Part shown: piece by piece, positions 2,056-61,259 of the stretch
Position numbering within the stretch: position 1 is the first letter of the stretch
Layout of the letters: each line of letters starts with the position of its first letter
Sequence record: OP197928
Direction: 5' to 3' (one strand)
DNA: 64,000 nt
From: Shigella phage A2
Notes under the pieces: model-generated
Told to the model about the DNA's origin: nothing
The model's database searches: none
Seen by the model: only the letters and a program-made list of their open reading frames with translations
Position numbers and translations under genes: made by a program

Positions 2056-2547
2056 ATGTTTGTAGATGATGTAACACGAGCGTTTGAATCTGGTGATTTT
2101 GCTCGACCTAACTTATTCCAAGTAGAAATTTCTTATCTTGGACAAAATTTTACGTTTCAATGTAAAGCCACTGCTTTACCAGCTGGTATTGTAGAAAAAA
2201 TTCCAGTCGGATTTATGAACCGTAAAATTAACGTAGCAGGCGATCGTACATTCGATGACTGGACTGTTACAGTAATGAACGATGAGGCACATGATGCTCG
2301 CCAGAAGTTTGTTGATTGGCAAAGCATTGCTGCTGGGCAAGGGAACGAAATTACTGGTGGAAAACCAGCAGAGTATAAAAAGAGCGCTGTTGTTCGCCAA
2401 TATGCTCGTGACGCTAAAACTGTAACAAAAGAAGTCGAAATTAAAGGCTTGTGGCCTACCAACGTGGGTGAACTTCAATTAGATTGGGATTCAAACAATG
2501 AAATCCAAACCTTTGAAGTAACTCTCGCTCTCGATTATTGGGAATAA
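2056..2547 (+). CDS. 19: Tail tube protein gp19
   Basis: 163 aa, size and sequence match recalled T4 gp19; position between sheath and portal. Confidence 0.95.
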   Translation: MFVDDVTRAFESGDFARPNLFQVEISYLGQNFTFQCKATALPAGIVEKIPVGFMNRKINVAGDRTFDDWTVTVMNDEAHDARQKFVDWQSIAAGQGNEITGGKPAEYKKSAVVRQYARDAKTVTKEVEIKGLWPTNVGELQLDWDSNNEIQTFEVTLALDYWE

Positions 2548-2579
2548 AATGAATGGGGAGAAATCCCCATCCTGCTTAA

Positions 2580-4204
<1,625 letters not shown>

Positions 4205-4205
<1 letters not shown>

Positions 4206-4453
4206 TGGAAGGTTTAATTGAAGCTATTAAATCAAACGACCTCGTAGCCGCTCGTAAATTCTTTGCTGAAGCCATGGCTGCAAGAACGATTGATTTAATT
4301 AAAGAAGAAAAAATCGCTATCGCTCGTAATTTCTTAATCGAAGGTGAAGAACCTGATGATGAGGATGACGAAGACGAGGATGATGACGAAGATAGCGATG
4401 ATAAAGACGACAAAAAAGACAAAGACTCTGACGAAGACGAGGATGATGAATAA
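4205..4453 (+). CDS. 67: Prohead core protein gp67 (acidic C-terminal tail)
   Basis: 82 aa, poly-Asp/Glu C-terminus, ATGA-type overlap with gene 20 stop, T4 gene order 20-67-68-21. Confidence 0.85.
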
Positions 4454-4878
4454 TGCTTCTGATCCCTGAAACTCATGAATTAGTTCTCGAGAATGTCGAA
4501 GCACTTATTCCTGAAGCACAGGGTCGCTTTGACGAATTGTCTTCTGCTTTAAATAAAGACGATATAAATAAAATTATCGAGAATATGCTTGATGATGAAA
4601 CTGATTTAGCGGTTGCATTAGCTTCTATTAATGAAAATATGCCGTTAAATGAATTTATCGTTAAACATGTTTCTGCCCGTGGTGAAATTACTCGCACTAA
4701 AGATCGCAAAACCCGCGAACGTAATGCATTTCAAACTACCGGGTTGTCTAAAGCAAAACGTAGACAAATTGCTCGTAAAGCTACCAAAACGAAGATTGCC
4801 AATCCAGCAGGTCAATCTCGTGCTCAGCGTAAGCGTAAAAAAGCTCTTAAACGCCGTAAAGCATTAGGATTAAGCTAA
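4453..4878 (+). CDS. 68: Prohead core protein gp68
   Basis: 141 aa with basic C-terminus, translationally coupled to gp67 and gp21. Confidence 0.85.
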
Positions 4879-6374: not shown

Positions 6375-7940
6375 ATGACTATCAAAACTAAAGCTGAACT
6401 TTTGAACAAATGGAAACCATTACTGGAAGGTGAAGGTTTACCGGAAATTGCTAATAGCAAACAAGCGATTATCGCTAAAATCTTTGAAAACCAGGAAAAA
6501 GATTTCCAGACAGCTCCAGAGTACAAAGACGAAAAAATTGCTCAGGCGTTCGGTTCTTTCTTAACAGAAGCTGAAATCGGTGGTGATCACGGTTACAACG
6601 CTACTAACATTGCTGCTGGTCAGACTTCTGGCGCAGTAACTCAGATTGGCCCAGCTGTTATGGGTATGGTACGTCGTGCTATTCCTAACCTGATTGCTTT
6701 CGATATTTGTGGTGTTCAGCCGATGAACAGCCCGACTGGCCAGGTATTCGCACTGCGTGCAGTATATGGTAAAGACCCAATCGCTTCCGGTGCTAAAGAA
6801 GCATTCCACCCAATGTATGGTCCAGATGCAATGTTCTCTGGTCAGGGTGCTGCTAAGAAATTCCCAGCTTTGGCTGCTAGTACACAAACCGTTGTGGGTG
6901 ATATCTATACTCACTTCTTCCAGGAAACTGGTACTGTGTATCTGCAAGCTTCCGCTGTAGTAACAATCGATGCTAGTGCTAACGATGCAACTAAACTGGA
7001 TGCTGAAATTAAGAAACAAATGGAAGCTGGCGTACTGGTAGAAATCGCTGAAGGTATGGCTACTTCTATCGCTGAACTCCAGGAAGGTTTCAACGGTTCT
7101 ACCGATAACCCATGGAATGAAATGGGCTTCCGTATCGATAAACAAGTTATCGAAGCTAAATCTCGTCAGCTGAAAGCTGCTTACTCTATCGAATTAGCAC
7201 AAGACCTCCGCGCTGTTCACGGTATGGATGCTGATGCTGAACTGTCTGGTATTCTGGCTACCGAAATCATGCTGGAAATCAACCGCGAAGTTGTTGATTG
7301 GATTAACTACTCAGCTCAGGTTGGTAAATCTGGTATGACCCTGACTCCGGGTTCTAAAGCTGGCGTATTTGACTTCCAGGATCCGATTGATATTCGTGGT
7401 GCTCGCTGGGCGGGTGAATCCTTTAAAGCTCTGTTGTTCCAGATTGACAAAGAAGCAGTTGAAATTGCTCGTCAGACCGGTCGCGGTGAAGGTAACTTCA
7501 TTATCGCTTCCCGTAACGTAGTTAACGTTCTGGCTTCAGTTGATACTGGCATTTCTTATGCTGCACAGGGTCTGGCTACCGGCTTTAACACTGATACTAC
7601 CAAGTCAGTATTTGCTGGTGTTCTGGGTGGTAAATACCGTGTATATATCGACCAGTATGCTAAACAGGATTATTTCACTGTAGGTTATAAAGGTCCGAAC
7701 GAAATGGATGCTGGTATTTACTACGCTCCATATGTAGCTCTGACTCCGCTGCGTGGTTCCGATCCGAAGAACTTCCAACCAGTAATGGGATTCAAAACTC
7801 GTTACGGTATCGGTATCAACCCATTTGCAGAATCCGCTGCTCAGGCTCCGGCTTCTCGCATCCAGAGCGGTATGCCTTCTATTCTGAACAGCCTTGGTAA
7901 GAACGCTTACTTCCGCCGTGTATATGTTAAAGGTATCTAA
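6375..7940 (+). CDS. 23: Major capsid protein gp23
   Basis: 521 aa; near-identical to recalled T4 gp23 (MTIKTKAELLNKWKPLLEGEGLPEIANSKQ...). Confidence 0.98.
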   Translation: MTIKTKAELLNKWKPLLEGEGLPEIANSKQAIIAKIFENQEKDFQTAPEYKDEKIAQAFGSFLTEAEIGGDHGYNATNIAAGQTSGAVTQIGPAVMGMVRRAIPNLIAFDICGVQPMNSPTGQVFALRAVYGKDPIASGAKEAFHPMYGPDAMFSGQGAAKKFPALAASTQTVVGDIYTHFFQETGTVYLQASAVVTIDASANDATKLDAEIKKQMEAGVLVEIAEGMATSIAELQEGFNGSTDNPWNEMGFRIDKQVIEAKSRQLKAAYSIELAQDLRAVHGMDADAELSGILATEIMLEINREVVDWINYSAQVGKSGMTLTPGSKAGVFDFQDPIDIRGARWAGESFKALLFQIDKEAVEIARQTGRGEGNFIIASRNVVNVLASVDTGISYAAQGLATGFNTDTTKSVFAGVLGGKYRVYIDQYAKQDYFTVGYKGPNEMDAGIYYAPYVALTPLRGSDPKNFQPVMGFKTRYGIGINPFAESAAQAPASRIQSGMPSILNSLGKNAYFRRVYVKGI

Positions 7941-8023: not shown

Positions 8024-9307
8024 ATGGCTAAAATCAACGAACTTCTGCGCGAATCAACCACAACGAATAGCAACTCAATCGGTCGCCCAAATCTCGTTGC
8101 TTTGACTCGCGCTACCACTAAATTAATATATTCTGACATTGTAGCAACGCAAAGAACTAATCAACCTGTTGCTGCTTTTTATGGTATCAAATACCTTAAC
8201 CCAGACAATGAATTTACATTTAAAACTGGTGCTACTTATGCTGGCGAAGCTGGATATGTAGACCGAGAACAAATCACAGAATTAACAGAAGAGTCTAAAT
8301 TAACTCTCAATAAAGGCGATTTATTCAAATATAATAATATCGTTTATAAAGTATTAGAAGATACACCATTTGCTGATATTGAAGAAAGTGATTTAGAATT
8401 AGCTCTTCAGATTGCAATTGTTCTTTTAAAGGTTCGTCTATTTTCTGACGCAGCGTCAACAAGCAAATTTGAAAGCTCTGATAGCGAAATTGCAGATGCT
8501 AGATTCCAGATTAATAAATGGCAAACCGCCGTTAAATCTCGTAAACTTAAAACTGGTATCACAGTTGAATTAGCACAAGATTTAGAAGCAAATGGATTCG
8601 ATGCTCCTAATTTCTTGGAAGATTTGCTTGCAACTGAAATGGCAGATGAAATCAATAAAGATATTCTGCAGTCTTTGATTACAGTATCAAAACGTTATAA
8701 AGTTACAGGAATTACTGATACTGGATTCATTGATTTGAGTTATGCATCTGCACCTGAAGCTGGTCGTTCATTATACCGAATGGTATGTGAAATGGTTTCG
8801 CATATCCAAAAAGAATCAACTTATACAGCAACGTTTTGTGTTGCTTCAGCTCGTGCCGCTGCGATTCTTGCTGCATCAGGTTGGTTAAAACATAAACCAG
8901 AAGATGATAAATATCTTTCACAAAATGCCTATGGGTTTTTAGCTAATGGTTTACCACTTTATTGCGATACTAACAGCCCATTAGATTATGTAATCGTTGG
9001 CGTAGTAGAAAATATCGGTGAAAAAGAAATTGTTGGATCAATTTTCTATGCTCCGTATACAGAAGGTCTCGACTTAGATGACCCTGAACATGTAGGTGCA
9101 TTTAAAGTTGTTGTTGATCCAGAAAGCTTGCAACCGTCTATCGGTTTATTAGTTAGATATGCTTTATCTGCAAATCCTTACACCGTAGCAAAAGATGAAA
9201 AAGAAGCAAGAGTAATTGATGGTGGAGACATGGATAAAATGGCGGGTCGTTCAGATTTGTCTGTTTTATTAGGTGTTAAGCTACCAAAAATTATCATTGA
9301 TGAATAA
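8024..9307 (+). CDS. 24: Capsid vertex protein gp24
   Basis: 427 aa, paralog-like similarity to gp23 core (ELAQDL..., IFYAPY...), T4 position. Confidence 0.95.
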   Translation: MAKINELLRESTTTNSNSIGRPNLVALTRATTKLIYSDIVATQRTNQPVAAFYGIKYLNPDNEFTFKTGATYAGEAGYVDREQITELTEESKLTLNKGDLFKYNNIVYKVLEDTPFADIEESDLELALQIAIVLLKVRLFSDAASTSKFESSDSEIADARFQINKWQTAVKSRKLKTGITVELAQDLEANGFDAPNFLEDLLATEMADEINKDILQSLITVSKRYKVTGITDTGFIDLSYASAPEAGRSLYRMVCEMVSHIQKESTYTATFCVASARAAAILAASGWLKHKPEDDKYLSQNAYGFLANGLPLYCDTNSPLDYVIVGVVENIGEKEIVGSIFYAPYTEGLDLDDPEHVGAFKVVVDPESLQPSIGLLVRYALSANPYTVAKDEKEARVIDGGDMDKMAGRSDLSVLLGVKLPKIIIDE

Positions 9308-22253: not shown

Positions 22254-23218
22254 TGTATTCTTTAGAGGAATTTAATAATCAAGCAATAAACGCAGATTTC
22301 CAACGTAATAATATGTTTAGCTGCGTTTTTGCGACAACTCCATCAACTAAAAGCTCTTCGTTGATAAGTTCAATTAGCAACTTTTCTTATAATAACTTGG
22401 GTCTAAATTCAGATTGGTTAGGATTGACTCAAGGCGATATTAATCAGGGAATTACCACGCTAATTACCGCTGGCACACAAAAACTGATAAGAAAATCAGG
22501 GGTTAGTAAATATCTTATTGGTGCCATGAGTCAACGTACAGTTCAAAGTTTATTGGGCTCATTTACAGTTGGTACATATTTAATTGACTTCTTTAACATG
22601 GCATATAACTCATCTGGATTGATGATATATTCTGTAAAAATGCCAGAGAATAGATTATCCTATGAAACTGACTGGAACTATAATTCTCCTAATATTCGTA
22701 TAACTGGGAGAGAATTAGACCCTTTGGTTATTTCATTTAGAATGGATTCAGAAGCATGTAACTATCGTGCAATGCAAGACTGGGTTAACGCTGTTCAAGA
22801 CCCAGTAACTGGATTGCGTGCTTTGCCACAAGATGTCGAGGCAGATATTCAGGTTAATCTTCATGCTCGTAATGGATTACCTCATACTGCGGTGATGTTC
22901 ACTGGATGCATTCCAGTGTCAGTGAGTGCTCCTGAGTTATCATATGATGGAGATAACCAAATAACTACATTTGATGTTACTTTTGCGTATAGAGTCATGC
23001 AGGCTGGGTCGGTTGATAGACAAGCTGCGCTTGAGTGGCTTGAATCTGCTGCTATAAATGGCATTCAAAGCGTTCTCGGAAATAGTGGAGGTGTTACTGG
23101 ATTATCTAATTCGCTTTCACGACTTAGTAGATTAGGAGGAACTGCTGGAAGCATTTCAAACATTAATACTATGACGGGAATTGTCAACTCGCAAAGTAAA
23201 ATATTAGGAGCAATATAA
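22253..23218 (+). CDS. 54: Baseplate tail tube initiator gp54
   Basis: 321 aa, gp19-like C-terminal similarity, T4 position. Confidence 0.9.
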   Translation: MYSLEEFNNQAINADFQRNNMFSCVFATTPSTKSSSLISSISNFSYNNLGLNSDWLGLTQGDINQGITTLITAGTQKLIRKSGVSKYLIGAMSQRTVQSLLGSFTVGTYLIDFFNMAYNSSGLMIYSVKMPENRLSYETDWNYNSPNIRITGRELDPLVISFRMDSEACNYRAMQDWVNAVQDPVTGLRALPQDVEADIQVNLHARNGLPHTAVMFTGCIPVSVSAPELSYDGDNQITTFDVTFAYRVMQAGSVDRQAALEWLESAAINGIQSVLGNSGGVTGLSNSLSRLSRLGGTAGSISNINTMTGIVNSQSKILGAI

Positions 23219-23222
23219 CAAT

Positions 23223-23252
23223 GGGGACCGAAAGGTCCCCATATTTTTATTT
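23223..23252. terminator. Bidirectional hairpin terminator between gene 54 and the minus-strand alt cluster
   Basis: GGGGACC-GAAA-GGTCCCC followed by ATATTTTTATTT. Confidence 0.7.
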
Positions 23253-23537
23253 ACGGAATGAAATAAAAGCAGCAACTGAAGCAACTAAACTGTCTTCAAT
23301 ATAAACTTCAATTTTTACCGGAGCTTCTGACTCAAATTTACCTGTTACTACACCTTGGAAAATGCTTTCAGTCTGCTCTGGCTTTGAAAAATTTTCAGAA
23401 GGAAAAATTCCGAACTTTTTATCTGTTCCAAAAATTTTGATAAATTCATCATAAACTGCTTCATTAAAAGCATTATCAGCAGGAATAACGCCTTCAACTA
23501 CAAGTTCTTGACCTAAAAAGCGCAAAGAAGATTTCAT
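23247..23537 (-). CDS. Hypothetical protein (T4 alt.-3 position)
   Basis: 96-aa ORF preceded by an early-promoter-like element. Confidence 0.55.
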   Translation of the reverse strand: MKSSLRFLGQELVVEGVIPADNAFNEAVYDEFIKIFGTDKKFGIFPSENFSKPEQTESIFQGVVTGKFESEAPVKIEVYIEDSLVASVAAFISFRK

Positions 23538-23576
23538 TTTGTGTTCCTCATGTTATGTCAGTAAAATTACTATAAC

Positions 23577-23606
23577 ACAACACGAGGGACTTGTAAACTA
23601 CATCTT
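23577..23606 (-). promoter_or_regulatory. T4-type early promoter (-35 GTTTAC, -10 TATAGT on minus strand)
   Basis: Plus GTAAAC at 23601..23606 and ACTATA at 23577..23582, 18-bp spacer; nearly identical cassette at 39204..39233. Confidence 0.55.
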
Positions 23607-25655
23607 GAACTTTTTAGACATTCCGTTGATGTTAACCAAAGAAGCCAAGATTTGAGAAACTTCGTTTTTCTCTTCTTTTGATTCTTCTACAAGGAATTGA
23701 TTAAACCCAGCCATTGGACGAACTTCACCAGTTTCCATCAGATGATCGCCATCATATACCGATTCTTCTAATTGTTCAGAAGGAGGAACGATTGTGCCTT
23801 CGATTAGATACTTGTTATAAGCAGTTTCTTTCATCATGTACGTGCTTACTTTATTAATCTTCAACAAAATTCCACGCGGTAAAATAACTTCAGCTTCTGA
23901 TGGAAATCCTGATAAATGACCTGGAACGATAACTTTAATTCGCTCAGCTCCTTTTATTACCATACCTACGCTAGTTTCAGCATCTTCATTAGCATATGCA
24001 GAATGACTGCCCATATGCATTAAATCTTCAGCATCAACAGAACCTTCTCCTTCACCAGAAAATACTGCGCCGGAATCATCTAGAGCCATATAGTTTTTAC
24101 CATGCTCACCGAAGATATTTGGTTTAAGCGATGTTGATACGAAGTTCTTGAAATAAAACATTTTATTTTCAATATTATGACGTAAAGTTTTAAAGGTAAC
24201 TTCTTGTCCACGATAAAGCGTAGTTCCTGGAGGAAGAACTGAACCTTTGGCAAAGGCAGAATCCATTGTCTCGATGTGTTTAATAGCTCGTTCCATGTAT
24301 TCTTCACGGGTAGAATCTGGTTTACCCAAGAGGAACGAGTTCATTTCAACATATGAATCTGCACAATAATCTTCAATTACATCAGACTCAGCCTGAGTCA
24401 GTCCTTTTGGAGTTACTTCGGTGCTTGCGTATTCATATGCCTGAGCAGCAGATTCATTAATCAATTTATAAATGCCATTCATGACAAATTGAATAATAGC
24501 TACCTTTTCGTCTGGCGTGGCTTTAGAACCTTTAACTAAATCATTGATAATTTTCTTAATAACATCAAAGCTATTAGAAATATTAATGTCAGCGAGATCG
24601 CTCAAAATTTTATCGGTTTTATAATCAAAGAATTCTTTATTCTTTAAATATTCTTGAGAACCTTGATATGTTATATCGCTCTGCAGCTTGATAGATGGAT
24701 CACGTAAACGTGCATGGGCCAATGCAATATGATTTCGGAAGCTTTCTAGTTCATAATCATTAGATTTAAAACGAGAAGCACTCCTCATACCACCGATAGC
24801 TCCTTTGCCGAAGTTTGAACCAATCTGAATAACGCCAGAGTTCATTGGTCCTTCTGCTTTATATACCGGAACTTTAGATTCAAACTCTTGATATTTCTTA
24901 GCGGCGAAGCTATCACCCTGAAGTGAAGCATCGACAGTAGAATATTGAGCTTGTGCTGCTAATCGACGACTAATTTTAGTTTTCTGAATAACAGCTTGAT
25001 CCGTGCGCTTATCATTTTCTAGAGCAATAGAAGCGGCAACAGCAACAGCTTTAGGAACAGCATTACCTGTTTTAACGTCTACATAAACATCACCAACCTT
25101 TGATTCAACTTTTGTGAATAACTCAGTTGAAATAGGAGGTACACCTGGAATGTCTTCTAAATTAGCAGTTTTACGATAAACCATAATATATGCATACTTT
25201 TTATCATAGTCCCAGATTTCCTTTAAAAGAACATATCGACCTGCTCCTTTAGTACGTACTAAACGGTCAGCAATAACTTGCATTTGACGAGCAGCGCCAT
25301 TTGTTTTACTTTTTAGTACGCGGAATAGGCATGCGTCAATTTTATACTGTTTCATTGTTTGAAGAGCAGTATCAAAAACCGCATTAATGACACCAATTGG
25401 ATTTCCACCCAAGTTTTTAAGTTTAACTAATGATAGTTTCTCATTAACACCTATCATTACGATATGCATCATTTTATCGCCTGGCTTAACGTTTTTATTT
25501 GTATCACCGCCAGAGGTGTATGTACAAAATCTAAATCCAGGAAGCACACTTTCTTCACCGGCTTGAATAGCAAAAATTTGAGGTATTTTATGCTTAGGAT
25601 TTAAGTTAACAACCGGCGCCGAAGCGCCGTCAAATAATTCTGTAATAAGTTCCAT
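23598..25655 (-). CDS. Alt-family ADP-ribosyltransferase paralog (685 aa)
   Basis: N-terminus MELITELFD...; C-terminal ART signature YRGQ ... FVSTSL ... SEAEVILPRG (R / S-T-S / E-x-E); paralogous to adjacent 698-aa ORF. Confidence 0.85.
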   Translation of the reverse strand: MELITELFDGASAPVVNLNPKHKIPQIFAIQAGEESVLPGFRFCTYTSGGDTNKNVKPGDKMMHIVMIGVNEKLSLVKLKNLGGNPIGVINAVFDTALQTMKQYKIDACLFRVLKSKTNGAARQMQVIADRLVRTKGAGRYVLLKEIWDYDKKYAYIMVYRKTANLEDIPGVPPISTELFTKVESKVGDVYVDVKTGNAVPKAVAVAASIALENDKRTDQAVIQKTKISRRLAAQAQYSTVDASLQGDSFAAKKYQEFESKVPVYKAEGPMNSGVIQIGSNFGKGAIGGMRSASRFKSNDYELESFRNHIALAHARLRDPSIKLQSDITYQGSQEYLKNKEFFDYKTDKILSDLADINISNSFDVIKKIINDLVKGSKATPDEKVAIIQFVMNGIYKLINESAAQAYEYASTEVTPKGLTQAESDVIEDYCADSYVEMNSFLLGKPDSTREEYMERAIKHIETMDSAFAKGSVLPPGTTLYRGQEVTFKTLRHNIENKMFYFKNFVSTSLKPNIFGEHGKNYMALDDSGAVFSGEGEGSVDAEDLMHMGSHSAYANEDAETSVGMVIKGAERIKVIVPGHLSGFPSEAEVILPRGILLKINKVSTYMMKETAYNKYLIEGTIVPPSEQLEESVYDGDHLMETGEVRPMAGFNQFLVEESKEEKNEVSQILASLVNINGMSKKFKM

Positions 25656-25658
25656 GAT

Positions 25659-27755
25659 TTATCCTTGAACGAACTTGTAAGGCATGTTTGCAATATCTAT
25701 GCAAGACGCAATAATTCCAAGAGATGATTCTACTTTTTGTTTAACATTTGATGAAACAAATGATGCAAAGTCAACTCTGTCTTCTATTTCAATATCACCT
25801 GTCATTGTAACTACTTCACCAGTTTCCATTAGACGGTCACCGTCATAAATTACTGATTCGGTGAGTTCTTCCGTAGTCATAACTTCAGCTTGAATGAGTT
25901 TTGTATTATTAGATGTTGTTCCGTCATTATTAGAAGCATCAGTTATTTTATTAACTTTGACCATCAATCCTCGTGGTAGAATAACTTCAGCTTCTGTTGC
26001 TATTCCGAGACTTCCTGGATATACAACATTAACTTTATGAGCTCCATCAATTGCCCATCCTATTTGAACTTTAACGTATTCTGGATTTTCTTTATACGCT
26101 CTTATTTCGTTTGGATTAATAGTTATTCCTTCTTCATTTTTATCAACTGTTAATTCATTACGAGCTTCTGGTTCTAAAAGACCAATGCCAGCATGTGTAA
26201 TTCCAAAACGTCCAAAAATGATAGGAGTTAAAGAAGTAGATACAAAATTTCTGAAATAGAACACTTTATTTTTAACTAGTGCTTCGTATATAGGAGCAGT
26301 CATACTTTGAGCACGATAAACTGTAATGCCTTCTGGTATACGGTCACCATTTTCAAAAGCTGAATCTAAGTTATTTATAGCAGATTCAATTTCTTTTTCA
26401 CTCATTACATCATATCGTTCTGGATTGTAGCGTCCTAAAAGAAGATTATTGATGTCAGTATATCCTGAACCGCAATACTCTCTAATGCCGCGCTTTTGTG
26501 ATGGAGTATATTTAGAACCATCACGGGCAATAGTAATATCAATCATTGGACCTGCACCAATTCCAGAAAAACTATAAATCATTCGTTTGAGGAATTTAGT
26601 TTTTGCTGCGTTCCAGGAATTTTTAGTTATTTCTTCCCAGACTTCATCTGGCTGCCCTTTACGAGTTTTATTATGTTTATCAAGCCAAGTATCTTTATAT
26701 TCTTCAAAGAATTTATTAATAGCTGCTGCATACTTCTCTAAACATTTTATTGAAGTAGTCGGTTCATTTTTAATCGCATTAAGAATTACATCTTTAATTT
26801 TTTCAGAAACTTCATTAACCTCACTTTTTGAAAAGAATTTATAGTCATAATGAAGTTCATCTGCGGTTCCTTCGGCAATAATTTTTGCTGCCTTAGTTTT
26901 AGAAGCTAATGAATTAATTCCAAGTTTCATTTCTTCTGCTTCGGGAATTAAAGGAGCGGTAGCAGGTTTATTGAAATTAGCTGCGGTAGATTCATATTTC
27001 TGGAATAATTCACTTTCAAATCTAGAAGATTCCAATGACTGACTTTGTGCAATTGCTCTACGGGAAATTTTAACTTTAACGATTACAGCTTGGTCAGAAC
27101 GTTTATCATTTTCTTGTGCAATAGATGCTGCAATTGCCTCATTTTTAGTTACTTGAGCTCCAGTATCTTTATTGATATAAACATCGCCGACTTTCGATTC
27201 AACTTTAGTAAAGAGCTCGGTGCTAATTTCCGGAACTCCTGGAATGTCTTCTAGTGATACATTTTTGCGATGTATAAGAATATATGCATACTTTTTATCA
27301 TAATCCCAGAGTTCCTTAAGAAGGACGTATCTGCCACCTGAACGACTGCGGATAAGTCTATCAGCAATAACTTGAATTTGTCGAGCTTGACCAGCAGTTT
27401 TAGACTTAAGAATACGAAGCATACAGGCATCAATTTTATACTGACGCATCGTCTGCATCGCAACAGTAAAAACTGAATTGATGTAATTAATTGGGCTTGG
27501 ACCGAGACCTTTTAATTTAGCAATTGAACCTTTAGCAGTTAATGTAAAAGGAACAATATGCATCATTTTATCGCCCATCTTTAAATCGCGATTAGTATCA
27601 CCTCCAGATGTATAGGTACATAAACGAAAGCCTGGTTGTTCAATTGCGTCATCAACATGAACTGAAAAAATTTGTGGTATTTTCTTCTTTGGATTTAAGT
27701 TTGTAATCGGAAGAGTAGTATCTTCGTCAAATAATTCTGTAATGAGTTCCATCAT
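25659..27755 (-). CDS. alt: Alt ADP-ribosyltransferase (698 aa), packaged internal head protein
   Basis: N-terminus MMELITELFDE...; ART signature YRAQ ... FVSTSL ... TEAEVILPRG; sits next to the DNA ligase gene as alt does in T4; which of the two paralogs is the T4 alt ortholog is not certain. Confidence 0.75.
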   Translation of the reverse strand: MMELITELFDEDTTLPITNLNPKKKIPQIFSVHVDDAIEQPGFRLCTYTSGGDTNRDLKMGDKMMHIVPFTLTAKGSIAKLKGLGPSPINYINSVFTVAMQTMRQYKIDACMLRILKSKTAGQARQIQVIADRLIRSRSGGRYVLLKELWDYDKKYAYILIHRKNVSLEDIPGVPEISTELFTKVESKVGDVYINKDTGAQVTKNEAIAASIAQENDKRSDQAVIVKVKISRRAIAQSQSLESSRFESELFQKYESTAANFNKPATAPLIPEAEEMKLGINSLASKTKAAKIIAEGTADELHYDYKFFSKSEVNEVSEKIKDVILNAIKNEPTTSIKCLEKYAAAINKFFEEYKDTWLDKHNKTRKGQPDEVWEEITKNSWNAAKTKFLKRMIYSFSGIGAGPMIDITIARDGSKYTPSQKRGIREYCGSGYTDINNLLLGRYNPERYDVMSEKEIESAINNLDSAFENGDRIPEGITVYRAQSMTAPIYEALVKNKVFYFRNFVSTSLTPIIFGRFGITHAGIGLLEPEARNELTVDKNEEGITINPNEIRAYKENPEYVKVQIGWAIDGAHKVNVVYPGSLGIATEAEVILPRGLMVKVNKITDASNNDGTTSNNTKLIQAEVMTTEELTESVIYDGDRLMETGEVVTMTGDIEIEDRVDFASFVSSNVKQKVESSLGIIASCIDIANMPYKFVQG

Positions 27756-27791
27756 ATCCTCTCTAGTGTTTATTCTATTTATAAAATTAAA

Positions 27792-27803
27792 GGCCCGAAG
27801 GCC
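27792..27803. other. GC-stem tetraloop hairpin (GGCC-CGAA-GGCC) between gene 30 region and alt
   Basis: Inverted repeat AAAGGCC CGAA GGCCTTT. Confidence 0.4.
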
Positions 27804-27804
27804 T

Positions 27805-27993
27805 TTAATAATCTATTGGTAAGAGAGTACGATATATTTCAAACTTTGGACCTTTTTCATAGGCATCAAATGTTTCTGTGAATTTATTATAAGCATATGC
27901 ATCTATAAATTCAATCATAATTTGTGATACAGAAGTAGAAACATCTCCACCTTCTTTTTGAGCAACGACAATTGTTTCTAAGTAAGCTTTCAT
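27805..27993 (-). CDS. Hypothetical 62-aa protein between ligase and alt
   Basis: ORF overlapping the gene 30 stop by 4 nt; no recognisable motif. Confidence 0.4.
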   Translation of the reverse strand: MKAYLETIVVAQKEGGDVSTSVSQIMIEFIDAYAYNKFTETFDAYEKGPKFEIYRTLLPIDY

Positions 27994-29453
27994 AGACCAG
28001 TTACCTCATGAAAATCACCAAATACATCCTCGAATGTATTAGCTTTAGTTTTATCTTCACGTAAACGAATCGCAATTGGAAGAAATAATTTTACGTAATC
28101 AGTGCGGCCATCAGATTTTAACCAACCATTGCATTCGCACTCTAGAATTTTTCCAATATAATAATTTTGGTTTTCCATAATGCGAGTACGGTCAAGTTCA
28201 TGTGATTTTACGCCGGCTTTATCTTTTAAGCCTGAACCAGCATTTACTTTAATTTTTCCACACTCTGATTCAAGAATAAATCCACCTGCTTTAGTAGGGT
28301 CTTTACGGTGAGGATAAATTCCTACAATTTTTAAATCAACATCAATTACTTCTTTAAATTTATAGAGATTTTTTGAACGAGCATTTTCCCACAATCCATC
28401 GGTATTTTTGAGAATAATACCTTCAAGACCTTGGTCAATATACTTTTTATAAATTACCTTAGCTTCATCTAGGTTATTTACTACCTGGTTTTCAATTAAA
28501 ATTACTTTATCATATCCTGATGTCATTTGTTCTAGTTTAGAAAAACGTACATCATATTTTAAACGAAACGCCGGAAGACCGTATATTTCTACCAACGGGA
28601 CATAATCCCAGACCTGAAACTTCATGCATTCGGCTTCTTTTTCGGAAATGGTTCCTTTTAAGGATTTATTGGCGATTCCATTAGAAGCAGTACGAGATTC
28701 CGCTACTTCGGCGAATTCTTTAGCTTTACTAATTTCAGGATAAGCATCAAAAAGAAAATCTAGGCCTTCTGGTTCCTTTTTAACTTGCTCATGGTATACC
28801 AATTCGCCATCAATTAACACACCTTCTGGATGAATCTGGCGGGCTTCAGCAGTCATTTTGATTAATTCTTCCTTAAGAAGATCTAATCCTAGATATTCAT
28901 TACCAGCTCGTGATAAAAGACGAACATCATCTAATTCATCGCCTCGGACTTCAGCAAAACACCGAGCTCCATCTGCTTTTAACTGTGCAAAGGCTGGAAA
29001 TTTGATATTCTTATTAATGCCTTTTTCATCATAAGAACTTGCCAGCATTTGAGGTTGTTCAGGAATTAAACCTGGCCAAACTTTGTTTGCAATAGATACT
29101 GAAGCACCGCATTCAAGGTCTCGCATCATCACTCGACGCAAAACTTCAACATCATCCTTTTTACCATCGGTGATATATCCAGTCAATTCCTCAATTGCAG
29201 CATTTCCGGTCAATTTCCGAGTAGCTAACGTGAATTCAATGAAGTCAAGCATATCGGTAATGGTCAGCATTCCAAAACTCTGGGTAGCAATACCAGGTTT
29301 AGGCCATTTCTTGATATAATACTGTAACCCACGAGAATAAGTCAGACGATATACCCGTTTAAGCAATTCATTATCTTTATTCTTTTCAAGAATTGCTTGC
29401 TTCTGCTTAGTTGATCCAATAGATGCTATTTCATTCAGAATTTTAAGAATCAT
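27990..29453 (-). CDS. 30: ATP-dependent DNA ligase gp30
   Basis: 487 aa; adenylation lysine motif (KADGAR); near-identical to recalled T4 DNA ligase. Confidence 0.97.
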   Translation of the reverse strand: MILKILNEIASIGSTKQKQAILEKNKDNELLKRVYRLTYSRGLQYYIKKWPKPGIATQSFGMLTITDMLDFIEFTLATRKLTGNAAIEELTGYITDGKKDDVEVLRRVMMRDLECGASVSIANKVWPGLIPEQPQMLASSYDEKGINKNIKFPAFAQLKADGARCFAEVRGDELDDVRLLSRAGNEYLGLDLLKEELIKMTAEARQIHPEGVLIDGELVYHEQVKKEPEGLDFLFDAYPEISKAKEFAEVAESRTASNGIANKSLKGTISEKEAECMKFQVWDYVPLVEIYGLPAFRLKYDVRFSKLEQMTSGYDKVILIENQVVNNLDEAKVIYKKYIDQGLEGIILKNTDGLWENARSKNLYKFKEVIDVDLKIVGIYPHRKDPTKAGGFILESECGKIKVNAGSGLKDKAGVKSHELDRTRIMENQNYYIGKILECECNGWLKSDGRTDYVKLFLPIAIRLREDKTKANTFEDVFGDFHEVTGL

Positions 29454-29719
29454 TGCTCATCCTTCAAAGTTTGGTTTACAGCTCTATTATAAATCAATTC
29501 ATCATTAAGCTCAGGCAAAGACTTATGATATGTAGTTCTAACTTTATTTCCTTGCATCCAGTGCTTGATATAAATGAAACCTTGCTCTACACATTTTTTA
29601 AAAATTCGTTCGTCTTTTTGAGCTCGGAATTCTGGATTGCATCTAAAAAATTGATTTACGTGACCGTAATCACGTGTAGTATTACCTTCATTTTCATAAA
29701 TAGTGTGAACGACAAACAT
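29450..29719 (-). CDS. Hypothetical protein (T4 30.1 position)
   Basis: 89-aa ORF, translationally coupled. Confidence 0.5.
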   Translation of the reverse strand: MFVVHTIYENEGNTTRDYGHVNQFFRCNPEFRAQKDERIFKKCVEQGFIYIKHWMQGNKVRTTYHKSLPELNDELIYNRAVNQTLKDEQ

Positions 29720-30582
29720 TAGAATGCTCCTTGGAAAATATTATCACCACTAGTAAATCTATTAAAATACCCTGCATCACCAGGCTTAGTATAACTCCAC
29801 GTATGGAATGGATTCATATGATACGGGTGTGTATAATATGGATTATATGGATGTGTATAATATGGATTATACGGATTAAATCCAGGAGTTCTCCAGGTAG
29901 TGTTCCAACGAAAAGAATCGTTTTTAACCATCTTCTCAATTACATCTTTTATAGCTTTTTCACTATCAAAACTTTCTTTATTTTCCTTCGGTGAAAAAAG
30001 CTTATTTTCTACATCATTCCATGTATAAACTCGCTGAGCGGTTTTTGGAATATTGTCACGCTCTCCTCGCGCCATCCAATAAACAGGAACATTTAATATT
30101 TCACTCGCATGATCGCAGTGGTGAGCAAGATCGTCAATATAACAAATTACGTTATATTTCTCTTTTGCCTTTTTGAATAACTCTTCTTTTGAAGAATCAT
30201 GACCACACATCATTACTTCTGAGAAGGCACCAGGAAAAAGAGCATTCAAATTAAATTGACGATTCAACAGAGCGTCAATAGAATCACCCAACGCTGTAAC
30301 AGCTACAAAATTATAATCTTCTTTTAATTTGTTAATTACGCACAGGGCGTCTTTATATGGAGACAAATAACGAATAAAATCTGAACGATTGTATTTTTCA
30401 ATTAACTTGACGCCAAGTTCTTCATCACAATTAAAGAGTTTACCCGGAGAAATAAATTTCTCATCTTGGATCATTTTTAAAATATGTTCTAACGGAAGAT
30501 TATATTTCTGAGCAAAATAAGGAAGGCCTGATTGCCAGCTTAAACATACTCCATCAATATCAGTTAAAATAGTAGGCTTCAT
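29719..30582 (-). CDS. HAD-superfamily-like hydrolase with C-terminal Tyr/Pro-rich repeat tail (T4 30.2 position)
   Basis: 287 aa; N-terminal ILTDIDGV (HAD motif I, DxDG); C-terminal NPYNPYYTHPYNPYYTHPYHMNPF. Confidence 0.6.
   Translation of the reverse strand: MKPTILTDIDGVCLSWQSGLPYFAQKYNLPLEHILKMIQDEKFISPGKLFNCDEELGVKLIEKYNRSDFIRYLSPYKDALCVINKLKEDYNFVAVTALGDSIDALLNRQFNLNALFPGAFSEVMMCGHDSSKEELFKKAKEKYNVICYIDDLAHHCDHASEILNVPVYWMARGERDNIPKTAQRVYTWNDVENKLFSPKENKESFDSEKAIKDVIEKMVKNDSFRWNTTWRTPGFNPYNPYYTHPYNPYYTHPYHMNPFHTWSYTKPGDAGYFNRFTSGDNIFQGAF
29825..29872. repeat. Perfect-to-near-perfect 24-bp tandem duplication inside the HAD-like ORF
   Basis: GGGTGTGTATAATATGGATTATAT / GGATGTGTATAATATGGATTATAC, encoding the YNPYYTHP repeat on minus strand. 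Confidence 0.8.
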
Positions 30583-38328: not shown

Positions 38329-38678
38329 TTAGAAAGGTCCTGGATGTCTTCTGCGAACTTGTTGAAGGAGTTGTTGATTTGTTTTTCAACCAATCCTGGC
38401 TTATGAGCCACCACATCCGCCTTCTTTGCGTCTTTGCGCAGTTTTTCATTTTCACGCTCAATAGCAGCAATTGCCTCACGATTTTTATTATTCATCGCAT
38501 CAATATAATTATACTGAATTCGCAAATTATTTAATGCTAAAGCGTTTTCATTGGCCGTTTTTGTAATTTCTACGACAGACGTTTCTAATCTTTCAATTTT
38601 ATTTTTTAAAATTAAAGAAGTTCCGCCCAATGCAATTACAATTAATAGCAAGCCTGCTGTCGTATTACTTAATTGCAT
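38325..38678 (-). CDS. Inner-membrane spanin (i-spanin; T4 pseT.3 equivalent)
   Basis: 117 aa; N-terminal transmembrane helix then charged coiled-coil region. Confidence 0.6.
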   Translation of the reverse strand: MQLSNTTAGLLLIVIALGGTSLILKNKIERLETSVVEITKTANENALALNNLRIQYNYIDAMNNKNREAIAAIERENEKLRKDAKKADVVAHKPGLVEKQINNSFNKFAEDIQDLSK

Positions 38679-39175
38679 AAAGTTTTAATAACCTCTATAA
38701 TATCGTCTTGAGAAAGACCGTTAATTAAAATATGATGTTCAGCCGGAGATTTAGAAATTTTAAAGCATGCCTCAACATCTTCTGCCATATCCGATGCGCT
38801 ACGATTTGGATTACTAATTCCAAGACGATGTTTTCCCGTTAAAGGATTAACGATGATATAGCATTTACAGTTGTTAATATGAACATTAGGTTGAGTCTGA
38901 TTAATGAACACATCGCAATCATATTTCGCAAGCTGATTTTCTAAAAAGACTTTCATCTCCTCAACCGCATCAGGAAGCATATCACGGGCTTGCTCAAGAC
39001 GACGATTTCGATATTCTTTAATGGTCGTTTTCCGCTTGACTTGTTTAGCTAAATCTTTCTTAAGATCGGTGATATATCCAACTCGACGATTTCCTTTAAA
39101 TACAGAAATCCCATCTGTAGTATCACCGTATGCTTCAACGACCATTTCAGTAGTAATAAGCTGTAAATCCATCAT
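38669..39175 (-). CDS. alc: Alc, inhibitor of host transcription on cytosine-containing DNA
   Basis: 168 aa, T4 Alc size and position next to rnlA. Confidence 0.8.
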   Translation of the reverse strand: MMDLQLITTEMVVEAYGDTTDGISVFKGNRRVGYITDLKKDLAKQVKRKTTIKEYRNRRLEQARDMLPDAVEEMKVFLENQLAKYDCDVFINQTQPNVHINNCKCYIIVNPLTGKHRLGISNPNRSASDMAEDVEACFKISKSPAEHHILINGLSQDDIIEVIKTLCN

Positions 39176-39203
39176 AAAGTCCTCATGTTATGTCAGTAAG
39201 ACT

Positions 39204-39233
39204 ACTGTAACACAACACGAGGGACTTGTAAAC
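39204..39233 (-). promoter_or_regulatory. T4-type early promoter (-35 GTTTAC, -10 TACAGT)
   Basis: About 50-bp cassette nearly identical to that at 23553..23606. Confidence 0.5.
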
Positions 39234-57446: not shown

Positions 57447-60400
57447 ATGGCTACTTTAAAACAAATACAATTTAAAAGAAGCAAAACTGCAGGTCAACGT
57501 CCTGCTGCTTCAGTATTAGCCGAAGGTGAATTGGCTATAAACTTAAAAGACCGTACTCTTTTTACTAAAGATGACTCGGGAAATATTATTGATTTAAGCA
57601 TTACCGCTGGCGGTAATATTAGTGGAAATATCACTCAAACTGGCGATTATACACAGACTGGAAAATTTAATTTAATTGGTCCGCAAATTGTAGCAAGCGG
57701 TGGATATATTGAGTTTAATTATCGTACTACTGGAAGTGGGGCTTGGTCCGGTCAACACACTGCAAAAGCTCCAATTTTTGTAGATTTAAGCTCAGCTACT
57801 TCCACATCTGAATATAATCCTATAATTAAACAGCGCTTTAAAGATGGAACTTTTTCATTAGGTACTTTAGTTTCTGAAGGTTCGTTGAAGATTCATTATA
57901 TTGATGAAACTGGTCAATCTAAATATTGGACATTTGCGCGCTCAGGTAATTTTCAAGTTGATTCTGGTAATTTATTAGTATCTGGTGGGTATTTAGTCGC
58001 TCAGAGTAATATTGAAACAAGAACAGGTTCTTTGATTGGTCCATCTGTTGTAACTAAAAATATTTCATTTGATACGAAAGCGTTTGGACAATACGATTCG
58101 CAGTCATTAGTTCAATATGTTTATCCTGGAACTGGTGAAACAAACGGAATTAATTACCTTCGTAAATTCCGTGCAAAATCTGGTGGTACGATTTATCATG
58201 AATTAGCTTCTGCACAAACCGGAAAAAGTGATGAACTGTCTTGGTGGACCGGTAATACAGCCGTTAATAAACAAATGGGCCTTCGCAATGATGGGTCTTT
58301 AGTGTTGCGACGCTCACTCGCAATTGGTACAATTACAACAGATGAAAACATTAATAATTACGGCTCCACTGGAGCAATGGGTGAATGCTATATAGTCATT
58401 GGAGATGCCGCAACTGGTGTATCATATAAAAGATCTGGTGTATATGATTTAGTTGCTAATGGTCTTTCTATCGCGTCTATTACTCCTGATAGTTTCCGTA
58501 GTACTCGTAAAGCGTTATTTGGACGTTCAGAAGACCAAGGCGGAACCTGGACAATGCCTGGAACGAATGCTGCATTTTTATCAGTTCAAACACAGGCTGA
58601 TGAAAACAGTGCTGGAGACGGTCAGACACATATTGGCTATAATTCAGGCGGAAAAATGAACCACTATTTCCGCGGCAAAGGCAAAACTAATATTAATACT
58701 CAAGAAGGCATGGAAGTTAACCCGGGTATTCTTAAAATAGTAACCGGTGCAAATAATGTAATGTTTTATGCTGATGGCGGTATTACATCCACTAAGCAGC
58801 TTTCAATATATAATGGTGTATATTTAGCAGCTAATAATTCTACTGCTGGGCTAACATTCGCTCCAACTACTACAATTGATGGCACTAAGCAAATTTTGTG
58901 GGAAGGTGGTAAGCGCGCTGGACAGAATAAAAGCTATGTAACTGTTAAAGCGTGGGGTAATTCATTTAACGCATCTGGCGATCGTAATCGTGAAACAGTT
59001 TTTGAAGTAGCTGACGGACAAGGTTATTATTTTTATTCCCAGCGTGTAGCCCCAAGCGGCTCAGAAACTACTGGTCCTGTTGTAACTCAGTTTGCTGGAG
59101 CTGTTAATGCTAGAGGAAGTATTATTACTGACGGAAGTTTTAAAGTTAATGGATTGAGCACTTTAGTCGGTAATGTTACCATGTCTAATGGTTTGTTTGT
59201 CCAAGGTGGTTCTTCTGTTACTGGACAAGTTAAAATCGGCGGAACTGCTGATGCATTAAGAATTTGGAATGCCGAATATGGTGCTATTTTCCGTCGCTCA
59301 GAAAGTAATCTTTATATTATCCCGACTCCTAAAGATGCTGGAGAATCTGGTGGTATAAGTAATCTTAGACCATTGATAATAGAACTGAACACTGGCACAG
59401 TTAAAATGTCGCATGATGTTCATTTAGGAGATTCTGGATCTGGTACAGGATTATTACAAGTAAGTAATAGTCTTAAAACTATTAAAATGATATGTCCAGT
59501 AACTATTAATGAACGCAATGCAGCGCTTACTCTAGATTCTCCTTCATCTTCTTCTGCTAATTATTTGCAGGGTTCTAAAGCTGGAACTAGATCGTGGTAT
59601 GTTGGTCTTGGTGGTGCTGGAAATGATTTATCACTTTATAGCCAATCTTATGGGCATGGTCTTGTTATAAGTGATAATTTCGTGTCAATCACTAAACCCT
59701 TTAAAGTCGGAAATGCCCAACTAGGAACTGACGGTAATATTACCAACGGTTCAGGAAACTTTGCTAACTTAAATACCACGTTAAATCGTAAAGTTAATTC
59801 TGGATTTATTACTTATGGAGCAACTGCTGGATGGTATAAGTTTGCAACAGTAACAATGCCACAATCCACTTCGACAGTCTTCTTTAAAATAGCCGGTGGT
59901 TCTGGATTTAATAGCGGATTATTCACACAATGTAATATTGCTGAAATTGTTTTACGTACTAGCAATGAAAGACCTGCTGACTTAAATGCTGTATTATACA
60001 CAAGAACAATTGGATCTGCATTTAAAGATATTGCAGTTAATAACGTCTCTGGAGATACATATGACATTTATGTTTCTGCCGGAACATATTGCAATCAATT
60101 AACTTGTGAATGGACATGTACTGAAAACGCTACGGTTAGTGTTATTGGTATTAACTCATCTACACAATCGCCTGTAGATGCTCTTCCAGACACAGCAGTT
60201 AACGGTCAAGTTGCTAATGTTCTTAATAACTTGGTTGATCGCGGTAAAGTTAAACGTTACGAAGCTGATTCTGAAATAGCTATTAATAACCAAACCGGCA
60301 TTCGTATTAGAAGCAACGGCGATAAAACTGGTTCTATTGCTACAATGCTACGAAATGATGGCGGTAGTTTTTATATTCTGTTTACAGATAAAAATGCCAC

Positions 60401-61229
60401 CGATGGCGCAGCAACTGTTAACGGCGATTGGAATAGTAAGCGTCCTTTCGCAATTAACTTAACAACCGGTGAAGTGCTAATGAATAACGGTATAGCTGTT
60501 CGCAGCGCTGCTTTATTCTATAATAGCATAAACGTCAAAGATAATGGTTCTATTAACTTTGATAAATCAGGCGCTAACCCTAGAAATATGAGAATATTTC
60601 ATGCTGGCGATGCTTCTCGCGGTAACCGTATTGAAATTGCCGATGAAACTAACTATATTGCTTACTTTGAAAAAGCTCCAGGTGGAGCTAACCGCTTTGT
60701 AGTAAATAATGCTACTGTGGCTGGTGTTAATCAAATGAATTCATTTGGTATTAACATCAATAACGCACTTGGTGGAAACAGTATAGCATTTGGTGATAAT
60801 GACACGGGTATTAAGCAAAACGGCGATGGATTATTAGACATTTATGCGAATGGTGTGCAAACGTTCCGTTTCCAAAACGGTGATTTGTACTCATATAAAA
60901 ATATAAATGCCCCAAACGTTTATATTCGTTCTGATATTCGCTTAAAATCTAATTTCAAACCTATCGAAAATGCACTTGATAAAGTTGAAAAACTCAATGG
61001 TGTCATTTATGATAAAGCTGAATACATCGGTGGAGAGGCAATTGAAACTGAAGCGGGTATTGTGGCTCAAACGTTACAAGACGTTTTACCAGAAGCTGTC
61101 CGTGAAACAGAAGACAGCAAGGGTAATAAAATACTCACTGTTTCTTCTCAAGCCCAGATTGCTCTTCTGGTTGAAGCTGTGAAAACACTTTCTTCTCGTG
61201 TAAAAGAACTTGAATCTAAACTTATGTAA
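57447..61229 (+). CDS. 37: Long tail fibre distal subunit gp37 (T2-type, with C-terminal intramolecular chaperone domain)
   Basis: 1260 aa (T4 gp37 is about 1026); N-terminal part T4-like; C-terminus carries SDIRLK autoproteolysis motif and coiled-coil tail. Confidence 0.93.
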   Translation: MATLKQIQFKRSKTAGQRPAASVLAEGELAINLKDRTLFTKDDSGNIIDLSITAGGNISGNITQTGDYTQTGKFNLIGPQIVASGGYIEFNYRTTGSGAWSGQHTAKAPIFVDLSSATSTSEYNPIIKQRFKDGTFSLGTLVSEGSLKIHYIDETGQSKYWTFARSGNFQVDSGNLLVSGGYLVAQSNIETRTGSLIGPSVVTKNISFDTKAFGQYDSQSLVQYVYPGTGETNGINYLRKFRAKSGGTIYHELASAQTGKSDELSWWTGNTAVNKQMGLRNDGSLVLRRSLAIGTITTDENINNYGSTGAMGECYIVIGDAATGVSYKRSGVYDLVANGLSIASITPDSFRSTRKALFGRSEDQGGTWTMPGTNAAFLSVQTQADENSAGDGQTHIGYNSGGKMNHYFRGKGKTNINTQEGMEVNPGILKIVTGANNVMFYADGGITSTKQLSIYNGVYLAANNSTAGLTFAPTTTIDGTKQILWEGGKRAGQNKSYVTVKAWGNSFNASGDRNRETVFEVADGQGYYFYSQRVAPSGSETTGPVVTQFAGAVNARGSIITDGSFKVNGLSTLVGNVTMSNGLFVQGGSSVTGQVKIGGTADALRIWNAEYGAIFRRSESNLYIIPTPKDAGESGGISNLRPLIIELNTGTVKMSHDVHLGDSGSGTGLLQVSNSLKTIKMICPVTINERNAALTLDSPSSSSANYLQGSKAGTRSWYVGLGGAGNDLSLYSQSYGHGLVISDNFVSITKPFKVGNAQLGTDGNITNGSGNFANLNTTLNRKVNSGFITYGATAGWYKFATVTMPQSTSTVFFKIAGGSGFNSGLFTQCNIAEIVLRTSNERPADLNAVLYTRTIGSAFKDIAVNNVSGDTYDIYVSAGTYCNQLTCEWTCTENATVSVIGINSSTQSPVDALPDTAVNGQVANVLNNLVDRGKVKRYEADSEIAINNQTGIRIRSNGDKTGSIATMLRNDGGSFYILFTDKNATDGAATVNGDWNSKRPFAINLTTGEVLMNNGIAVRSAALFYNSINVKDNGSINFDKSGANPRNMRIFHAGDASRGNRIEIADETNYIAYFEKAPGGANRFVVNNATVAGVNQMNSFGININNALGGNSIAFGDNDTGIKQNGDGLLDIYANGVQTFRFQNGDLYSYKNINAPNVYIRSDIRLKSNFKPIENALDKVEKLNGVIYDKAEYIGGEAIETEAGIVAQTLQDVLPEAVRETEDSKGNKILTVSSQAQIALLVEAVKTLSSRVKELESKLM

Positions 61230-61230
61230 A

Positions 61231-61256
61231 AGAGGGCTTCGGCCCTCTAAGGATTT
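61231..61256 (+). terminator. Hairpin after gene 37 (AGAGGGC-UUCG-GCCCUCU) with downstream U-run
   Basis: 7-bp stem, UUCG tetraloop, then AAGGATTTTTA containing the gene 38 SD; probably attenuating. Confidence 0.5.
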
Positions 61257-61259
61257 TTA

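Follow-up and report, generated by a model that had tools for sequence, protein, structure and literature searches.

Phage T4 and its relatives are often credited with three ADP-ribosyltransferases (ARTs), Alt, ModA and ModB, and this set is often taken as the T-even repertoire (PMC10468400). A 64,000-nucleotide stretch of Shigella phage A2 (OP197928; hereafter the window) carries two adjacent Alt-like genes, which raises the question whether the second of them encodes a further intact, injected enzyme and, if so, whether that enzyme is new. Both genes lie on the minus strand. The upstream gene, alt, is the orthologue of T4 alt and encodes the protein called here Alt1 (25659-27752, 697 residues and stop), and the downstream gene, alt.-2 in the annotations of phages RB32 and T6, encodes Alt2 (23598-25655, 685 residues and stop). 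The pair is the standard, undeleted alt locus of Tequatrovirus, already known and annotated, and T4 is a deletion derivative. It is very likely that such a locus provides two Alt-family ARTs that are co-transcribed late, trimmed by gp21 and injected, with targets that overlap at most in part.

Alt1 and Alt2 are tandem paralogues

A sequence-only reading of the window had described two adjacent minus-strand open reading frames (ORFs) as clear paralogues. Both ORFs are present, at 23598-25655 (685 residues) and 25659-27755 (698 residues), although the upstream one likely starts one codon later, at the second ATG (27752), to give 697 residues. The longer Alt1 ORF opens with ATG-ATG-GAA (MMELITE), and T4 has the identical ATGATGGAA. 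The second ATG is likely the start because T4, with the same ATGATGGAA, is annotated from MELITE, because the ribosome-binding site GAGAGGA (27757-27763, minus strand) is better spaced to it, and because the published cleavage of T4 Alt at ITE-6 is numbered in a way that fits MELITE.

Pairwise alignment gives 41% identity over 718 columns (BLASTP, E 2e-161), far beyond chance, and as judged from this alignment Alt1 and Alt2 are genuine paralogues in tandem, both of the Alt family. The blocks that had been picked out as common to both were all recovered: MELITELFD, KIPQIF, PGFR.CTYTSGGDTN, GDKMMHIV, QYKIDAC...VGDVY, YR.Q, FYF.NFVSTSL and EAEVILPRG.

Profile searches for an ART domain place both proteins in the same family. 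Pfam PF03496 (ADPrib_exo_Tox) is matched by Alt2 at residues 416-620 (2.8e-20, 72.9 bits) and by Alt1 (1.7e-37, 129.2 bits), each well above the curated cutoff of 23.4 bits, and PHROG 802, 'Alt-like RNA polymerase ADP-ribosyltransferase', spans both from end to end (Alt2 residues 1-685 at 6.6e-255). Homologues carry a precomputed pair of domains, PF26846 (Tevenvirinae_ADPRT) and PF03496; PF26846 is recorded for P0001, which is 99% identical, and for every homologue listed, and its assignment to Alt2 is taken from these annotations and not from a direct score. No NCBIfam model was found for Alt1 or Alt2, Pfam at E values up to 10 gave nothing in the Alt2 N-domain and only noise in its central region, and no PDB chain was matched by sequence searches with Alt2 or with a profile of its N-domain.

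The catalytic residues of Alt2 are R482 (YRGQ, 24204-24215), S507-T508-S509 (24129-24137) and E587-A-E589 (EAEV, 23886-23897), all on the minus strand; those of Alt1 are R480, S505-T506-S507 and E587/E589. The R, S-T-S and E-x-E columns are invariant among Alt2, Alt1 and T4 Alt, and ModA and ModB have R, S and ExE at the corresponding positions. The arginine-specific signature that had been read as intact in both genes is borne out by this alignment, neither copy having lost its R, STS or ExE residues. The same residues are kept in 22 homologues and in members of five further Straboviridae genera, the Arg, Ser-Thr-Ser and Glu-x-Glu motifs stand in the order and spacing that define the R-S-E clade of ARTs, and Alt2 has the features of the C3/VIP2-like ART fold. 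In T4 Alt, the E577A substitution renders the enzyme catalytically dead (PMC11404850). The prediction that Alt1 and Alt2 are intact Alt-family NAD+-dependent mono-ADP-ribosyltransferases of the arginine type is well supported.

ModA and ModB of T4 belong to the same R-S-E clade as Alt2, with 16-20% identity to it, but are enzymes of about 200 residues that are expressed early, are not packaged and lack the N-terminal module, the helical region and the propeptides described below. The bacterial toxins C3, VIP2, iota, CDTa and Vis, which are secreted and carry other delivery domains, are 13-24% identical to Alt2. Searches of the window by tblastn with Alt1, Alt2 and T4 Alt as queries, ModA and ModB not being among them, revealed no third ART.

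Distribution and selection

Alt2 is a live gene under strong purifying selection. Compared with its RB32 and T6 orthologues it has 73-78 synonymous and 14 non-synonymous differences, a ratio of non-synonymous to synonymous substitution rates (dN/dS) of 0.044-0.047, the same as for Alt1; with a 74%-identical orthologue the ratio is 0.13. By tblastn, 396 phage records have Alt2 at 95% identity or above, RB5, RB32, ime09, Shfl2 and HY01 among them; six match at 80-95%, none at 60-80% and 820 below 60%. In a large protein collection clustered at 90% identity, the Alt2 cluster has 772 members and that of Alt1 641. Over positions 23200-28000 the window matches 541 phage records, 354 of which cover at least 80% of the stretch, and the nearest is Shigella phage KRT47 at 98.6%.

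The tandem pair is also encoded in T2, T6, RB32, KRT47 and a divergent metagenomic phage. T2 and T6 have the same 2058-nucleotide gene beside a 2094-nucleotide alt, and the copies in T2 (BBC14817, 'hypothetical protein'), T6 (AXN58232) and RB32 (alt.-2, YP_803136) share with Alt2 their length, strand and position between alt and alt.-3. As the RB32 copy is 98.2% identical to Alt2 by tblastn and the T6 copy differs at 14 non-synonymous sites (dN 0.009), these genes show no difference of substance, and the copy in the window is one more allele. Annotators have noted the resemblance before: the 685-residue gene of RB32 was described in 2006 as 'alt.-2 ... similar to alt', AXN58232 of T6 carries the remark 'apparent insertion in alt.-2; also similar to alt', and the RefSeq name for both genes, 'Alt-like RNA polymerase ADP-ribosyltransferase', is used in several hundred Tequatrovirus records. 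The suggestion that the second gene is an unrecognised extra effector therefore falls, since a conserved full-length paralogue is already annotated in T2, T6, RB32 and those several hundred records. The sequence-only reading had itself allowed that the gene might prove to be a known conserved paralogue in the orthologous T4 interval; in substance this is what T2, T6 and RB32 contain, while T4 itself holds a truncated remnant only.

Duplications adjoining alt have been described in other T4-like phages, full-length in ORF187c of 44RR and partial in ORF183c of RB49 and ORF188c of 44RR (Nolan et al. 2006; PMC1524935). Like Alt2 they are paralogues adjacent to alt, but they belong to other genera, and common descent with the Alt2 duplication is not implied. 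A more divergent T4-like contig (Logan SRR23924977, 2242-6423) has a pair of 697 and 694 residues, its Alt2 being 74% identical to that of the window; the duplication therefore predates the divergence of that phage. No alt.1 was called on this contig between the ligase gene and alt.

Loss of Alt2 in T4

The alignment of T4 to the window ends at 23617 and restarts at 25308. These positions fall in two copies of a 9-nucleotide direct repeat, ACTTTTTAG, at 23609-23617 and 25308-25316. The position of the T4 junction inside the repeat points to a deletion of 1,699 bp between the copies, after which T4 keeps only the Alt2 codons upstream of the second copy (about 1-116). What remains is also frameshifted near codon 55 (T4 extract 7080-7140), which splits it into alt.-1 and alt.-2 (NP_049810 and NP_049809). 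Both T4 genes correspond to the first approximately 116 codons of Alt2, aligned to window positions 25308-25655, but with 1,699 bp gone and a frameshift no ART domain is left in them. PHROGs 23015 and 15247, whose 61 and 67 positions equal the lengths of T4 alt.-1 and alt.-2, match Alt2 residues 1-56 and 62-117 (2e-40 and 3e-38) better than they match Alt1. In the GenBank notes for T4, alt.-1 and alt.-2 are said to duplicate the initial part of alt, and the note on alt.-2 calls the duplication old.

Predicted packaging and processing by gp21

The prohead core contains T4 Alt in about 40 copies, and the protein is ejected together with the DNA (PMC5694885; PMC9026906). It is cut by gp21 after ITE-6 and LTE-619 to a mature protein of 68.2 kDa, as found by mass spectrometry (PMC5694885). 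The first nine residues, MELITELFD, are identical in Alt2, Alt1 and T4 Alt, and the ITE of Alt2 (codons 4-6, 25638-25646, minus strand) is an N-terminal gp21 cleavage motif. The proposal that the N-terminal I-T-E fits the gp21 rule gains weight from the fact that the same motif is the experimentally mapped ITE-6 site of T4 Alt (PMC5694885).

Beyond that earlier proposal, both proteins retain a second, C-terminal L-x-E (LTE-632 in Alt1, LEE-631 in Alt2). In Alt1 it lies in residues 630-634 (LTE|SV, 25851-25865, minus strand), where the sequence is the same as at the T4 site. In Alt2 residues 629-633 (LEE|SV, 23757-23771, minus strand) are the predicted site, homologous to LTE-619 of T4, and the LEE is followed by a family-wide S.(.)YDGD.LMETGE block. 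Among 11 Straboviridae sequences from different genera, E631 does not vary. Residues 632-685 of Alt2 (23601-23762, minus strand) are the predicted C-terminal propeptide, homologous to the stretch of 63 residues that T4 Alt loses on cleavage (PMC5694885). At the level of sequence, Alt2 has a gp21 motif at each end. Packaging and processing of Alt2 are supported by homology, and may be expected to follow those of T4 Alt.

Conserved ends and a variable centre

Alt2 was modelled with AlphaFold2 from a 22-sequence alignment (mean predicted local distance difference test score, pLDDT, 74.9; predicted template modelling score, pTM, 0.69). The model comprises an alpha/beta N-domain (residues ~12-215), a helical part (~220-470), a beta-rich catalytic part (480-622) and low-confidence ends (1-11 and 631-685). 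Both predicted propeptides are disordered ends of low confidence, with pLDDT below 50 over residues 631-685, and the loop at 516-528 is poorly modelled. By alignment, residues 7-240 form a conserved N-terminal alpha/beta module (24936-25637; pLDDT 83.8; PF26846 on homologues), residues 241-415 a predicted helical region that is hypervariable (24411-24935) and residues 416-625 the ART domain (23781-24410), all on the minus strand. Structural comparison allowed no fold family to be assigned to the N-domain. A GNAT acyl-CoA N-acyltransferase fold was considered for this module and set aside, as its likeness to GNAT N-acyltransferases did not stand out from that to other folds.

Identity is distributed very unevenly along these proteins. 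Computed in 30-column alignment steps, identity between Alt2 and Alt1 is 53-77% in the N-module, 17-32% in the central region (columns 241-420) and 20-63% in the ART domain, which agrees with the earlier description of the central regions as strongly diverged. Alt1 and T4 Alt, 70% identical overall, are likewise a mosaic, with residues 1-246 ~100% identical, the central region 16-37%, the ART domain 55-79% and the C-terminus 83-100%. T4 Alt (NP_049811) has the N-module, helical middle, R-S-ExE ART domain, C-terminal propeptide, both gp21 motifs and late context of Alt2; however, the two are 42% identical, their central regions are essentially unrelated (4-8% in places) and their STS-to-ExE segments differ. 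Among 121 homologues there are at least 11 types of central region at 70% identity. In these alignments conserved N- and C-terminal modules flank a hypervariable central and catalytic cassette, even among orthologues.

The central part of Alt1 (26517-27014, minus strand) behaves as a swapped or hypervariable cassette relative to T4 alt. Between positions 8276-8697 of T4 and 26516-26946 of the window no DNA similarity was detectable. The alt of RB69 (AY303349, 1-2070) is collinear at both ends, with ~60 residues in place of the expected YR..FVSTS region; the record seems to contain either a sequencing error or two frameshifts that compensate each other.

Recombination between the two genes has left chimeras. 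Four protein clusters (P0003, P0004, P0005 and P0007) are exact chimeras, 100% identical to Alt1 at the N-terminus and thereafter ~100% identical to Alt2, with crossovers near residues 40, 110, 170 and 220, on contigs with a single alt gene between alt.1 and alt.-3. The complete genomes of the cultured phages ECML-134 and PST (Yersinia phage) likewise have one chimeric alt each (extracts 2501-4561) between alt.1 and alt.-3, the crossover lying at about residue 158 for ECML-134 and about residue 102 for PST; in SCS4 a single equivalent match occupies the ECML-134 coordinates. An explanation of the chimeras as assembly collapse of a tandem repeat was rejected, because they occur in complete cultured genomes (ECML-134, SCS4, PST) and with different crossover points. 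The chimeras arose by unequal crossing-over between the tandem paralogues, and the differing crossover points are as expected for independent events. The single chimeras of ECML-134 and PST show the N-modules to be interchangeable, and show that a viable phage can have an Alt2-type body as its sole Alt. As that body stands on an Alt1 N-terminus in the only alt of these cultured phages, the Alt2 effector evidently works with the Alt1 delivery end.

Expression signals

An exact T4-type late promoter box, TATAAATA, lies upstream of alt at 27776-27783 on the minus strand. The ATG of Alt2 is 3 nucleotides past the alt stop codon, its ribosome-binding site (C)AAGGA (25662-25667, minus strand) lies within the last alt codons, and the scan listed no minus-strand terminator-like site between the alt promoter and a bidirectional hairpin at 23221-23242. 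The TATAAATA box probably drives alt and Alt2 as one late transcript, which possibly also includes alt.-3. For late expression of Alt2 the evidence is that of motifs only, namely the TATAAATA box at 27776-27783, the 3-nucleotide gap and the stretch free of terminator-like sites. A second TATAAATA, at 26372-26379 inside alt, was rejected as a promoter, an estimated ~0.5 such boxes per strand being due to chance in 4 kb of AT-rich DNA.

Directly after alt.1 a GC-rich hairpin, AAAGGCCTTCGGGCCTTT (27789-27806, minus strand), was read from the sequence and is kept in T4; it is likely the terminator of the upstream early unit, though the consensus terminator scan did not list it. The region upstream of alt, with hairpin, late box and ribosome-binding site, is that of T4 except for a 5-nucleotide indel.

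An early-type promoter for alt.-3 has its -35 element at 23593-23598 and its -10 element at 23569-23574 on the minus strand. It falls in a 54-nucleotide early-promoter and 5'-leader cassette that occurs twice on the minus strand of the window, at 23545-23598 before alt.-3 and at 39180-39233 before a 168-residue ORF (38669-39175). The 26-nucleotide core of the cassette, GTTTACAAGTCCCTCGTGTTGTGTTA, is exact in both copies, where no chance match would be expected. Presumably the cassette is akin to the mobile 'promoter-early stem-loop' cassettes of T4-type genomes.

A model for the locus and its alternatives

Taken together, these features suggest how the undeleted locus may work. Transcribed late from TATAAATA at 27776-27783, alt and Alt2 would be translated in tandem, and the shared N-terminal module would take both proteins into the prohead core. 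By analogy with the mapped sites of T4 Alt, gp21 would trim them after E6 and after the L-x-E ~55-65 residues from the C-terminus, leaving a mature Alt2 of residues 7-631. Both would then be ejected with the DNA, as T4 Alt is, and would modify host proteins by ADP-ribosylation as soon as infection begins. The parts used for delivery, the N-module and the C-terminal propeptide, would be common to the two, whereas the helical centre and the loops around the catalytic core would differ. With a different central region and different catalytic loops, Alt1 and Alt2 most likely modify different or only partly overlapping host proteins, and a distinct host target for Alt2 may reasonably be inferred. 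The locus itself is recombinationally active, its conserved 5' parts allowing unequal crossing-over to single chimeric genes, and T4 lost Alt2 by deletion between short repeats.

If either enzyme sufficed for infection, Alt2 would be a redundant copy, and one would expect phages that have a single gene, of Alt1 type as in T4 or of Alt2 type as in ECML-134 and PST; such phages are found. The family, catalytic signature and delivery modules that the two proteins have in common also fit such redundancy. However, a discrete pair has been kept at a synonymous divergence between paralogues (dS) above 1 with each member under strong purifying selection, the centres are only 17-32% identical, the STS-to-ExE segment differs in both length and sequence, and the combinations have been reshuffled, as in HP3, G4507 and PM136, where a T4-type Alt is combined with a full-length Alt2. 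Redundancy is therefore unlikely, although it deserves serious consideration. The late transcript could alternatively supply an unpackaged ART that acts late inside the producing cell, from within like ModA and ModB, the N-terminal similarity being a relic of duplication. No virion proteomics of Alt2 was found in the literature and its N-module is just 53-77% identical to that of Alt1, as this would predict. Nevertheless, the nine N-terminal residues with their cleavage motif are identical and the C-terminal site and YDGD.LMETGE block are conserved family-wide. Purifying selection also acts on the N-module (of four segments, it has the lowest paralogue dN/dS, 0.21), natural chimeras swap N-modules freely and expression appears coupled to alt behind the late promoter, which together make purely intracellular action improbable. 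Least probable of all, to the point of being hardly credible, is a reading of Alt2 as a duplicate in decay or already without catalytic activity, heading for the T4 state and at most a structural component of the core. T4 did lose Alt2, the Pfam score of Alt2 is below that of Alt1 (72.9 against 129.2 bits) and loop 516-528 is poorly modelled; yet the ORF is intact and at least 95% identical in 396 records with a dN/dS of ~0.045, all catalytic residues are invariant, and Alt2 provides the only Alt body in ECML-134 and PST.

Several points weigh against the reading of the pair as two injected enzymes with separate targets. The idea of distinct targets draws on sequence divergence only, in the central region and in the loop that precedes ExE. 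The capsid-targeting determinant of Alt itself has been raised as an open question (PMC5694885), and the searchable, mostly non-subscription literature yielded no published evidence for Alt2 in virions or for its cleavage, targets, mutants or activity, which does not prove that none exists. By residue count the ExE of T4 Alt is E574/E576 as against the published E577, so the mapping of the dead mutant to the motif is probable and off by one. Furthermore, T4 manages in the absence of Alt2, and even alt is dispensable (PMC9026906), so that any contribution of Alt2 is conditional.

The surrounding region

The neighbouring genes are of T-even type: gp29, gp48, gp54, alt.-3, the two alt genes, alt.1, DNA ligase and the gene 30.x series. 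Alt2 lies between gene 30/alt.1 and alt.-3/gene 54 on the strand opposite the baseplate genes, the position of the family, and alt adjoins alt.1 and gene 30 as in T4, T2 and T6. Directly downstream of Alt2, alt.-3 (23247-23537, minus strand, 96 residues) is a DUF5498 (PF17602) gene and not an ART; T4 mutants in which the C-terminus of its uncharacterised product is extended escape the CmdTAC defence system (PMC11618068).

Elsewhere in the window, at the position of gp37 and gp38, ORFs of 1260 and then 261 residues occupy 57447-62045 on the plus strand. We take these sizes to be those of a tail fibre plus adhesin of the T2/T6 type and not of T4, which would agree with a T2/T6-like alt locus. 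Within an ORF at 29719-30582, the homologue of gene 30.2, a 24-nucleotide unit is repeated 2.3 times (29821-29876, 90% matches), which duplicates PYNPYYTH near the C-terminus.

Implications

Alt2 is not a discovery: annotations of the gene go back to 2006, and it shares with Alt its family, fold and likely means of delivery. Its distribution does show T4 to be atypical: in most sequenced Tequatroviruses, T2 and T6 among them, there is a fourth intact enzyme, of the Alt type, that is probably injected. More tentatively, and we would not press the point, Alt-family proteins may be modular delivery vehicles, their conserved N-module and C-terminal propeptide serving for loading into the capsid and for ejection, with an exchangeable effector cassette of many types between them, formed by the helical region and the ART domain, such that Alt2 has targets other than those of T4 Alt and possibly serves in counter-defence. 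If true, the fact that T2 and T6 have Alt2 whereas T4 has lost it would partly explain why, as is known, these phages do not do equally well against host defences. The locus is a caution against generalising from T4, and Alt2 is a tractable subject for research on phage takeover of the host and on ADP-ribosylation.

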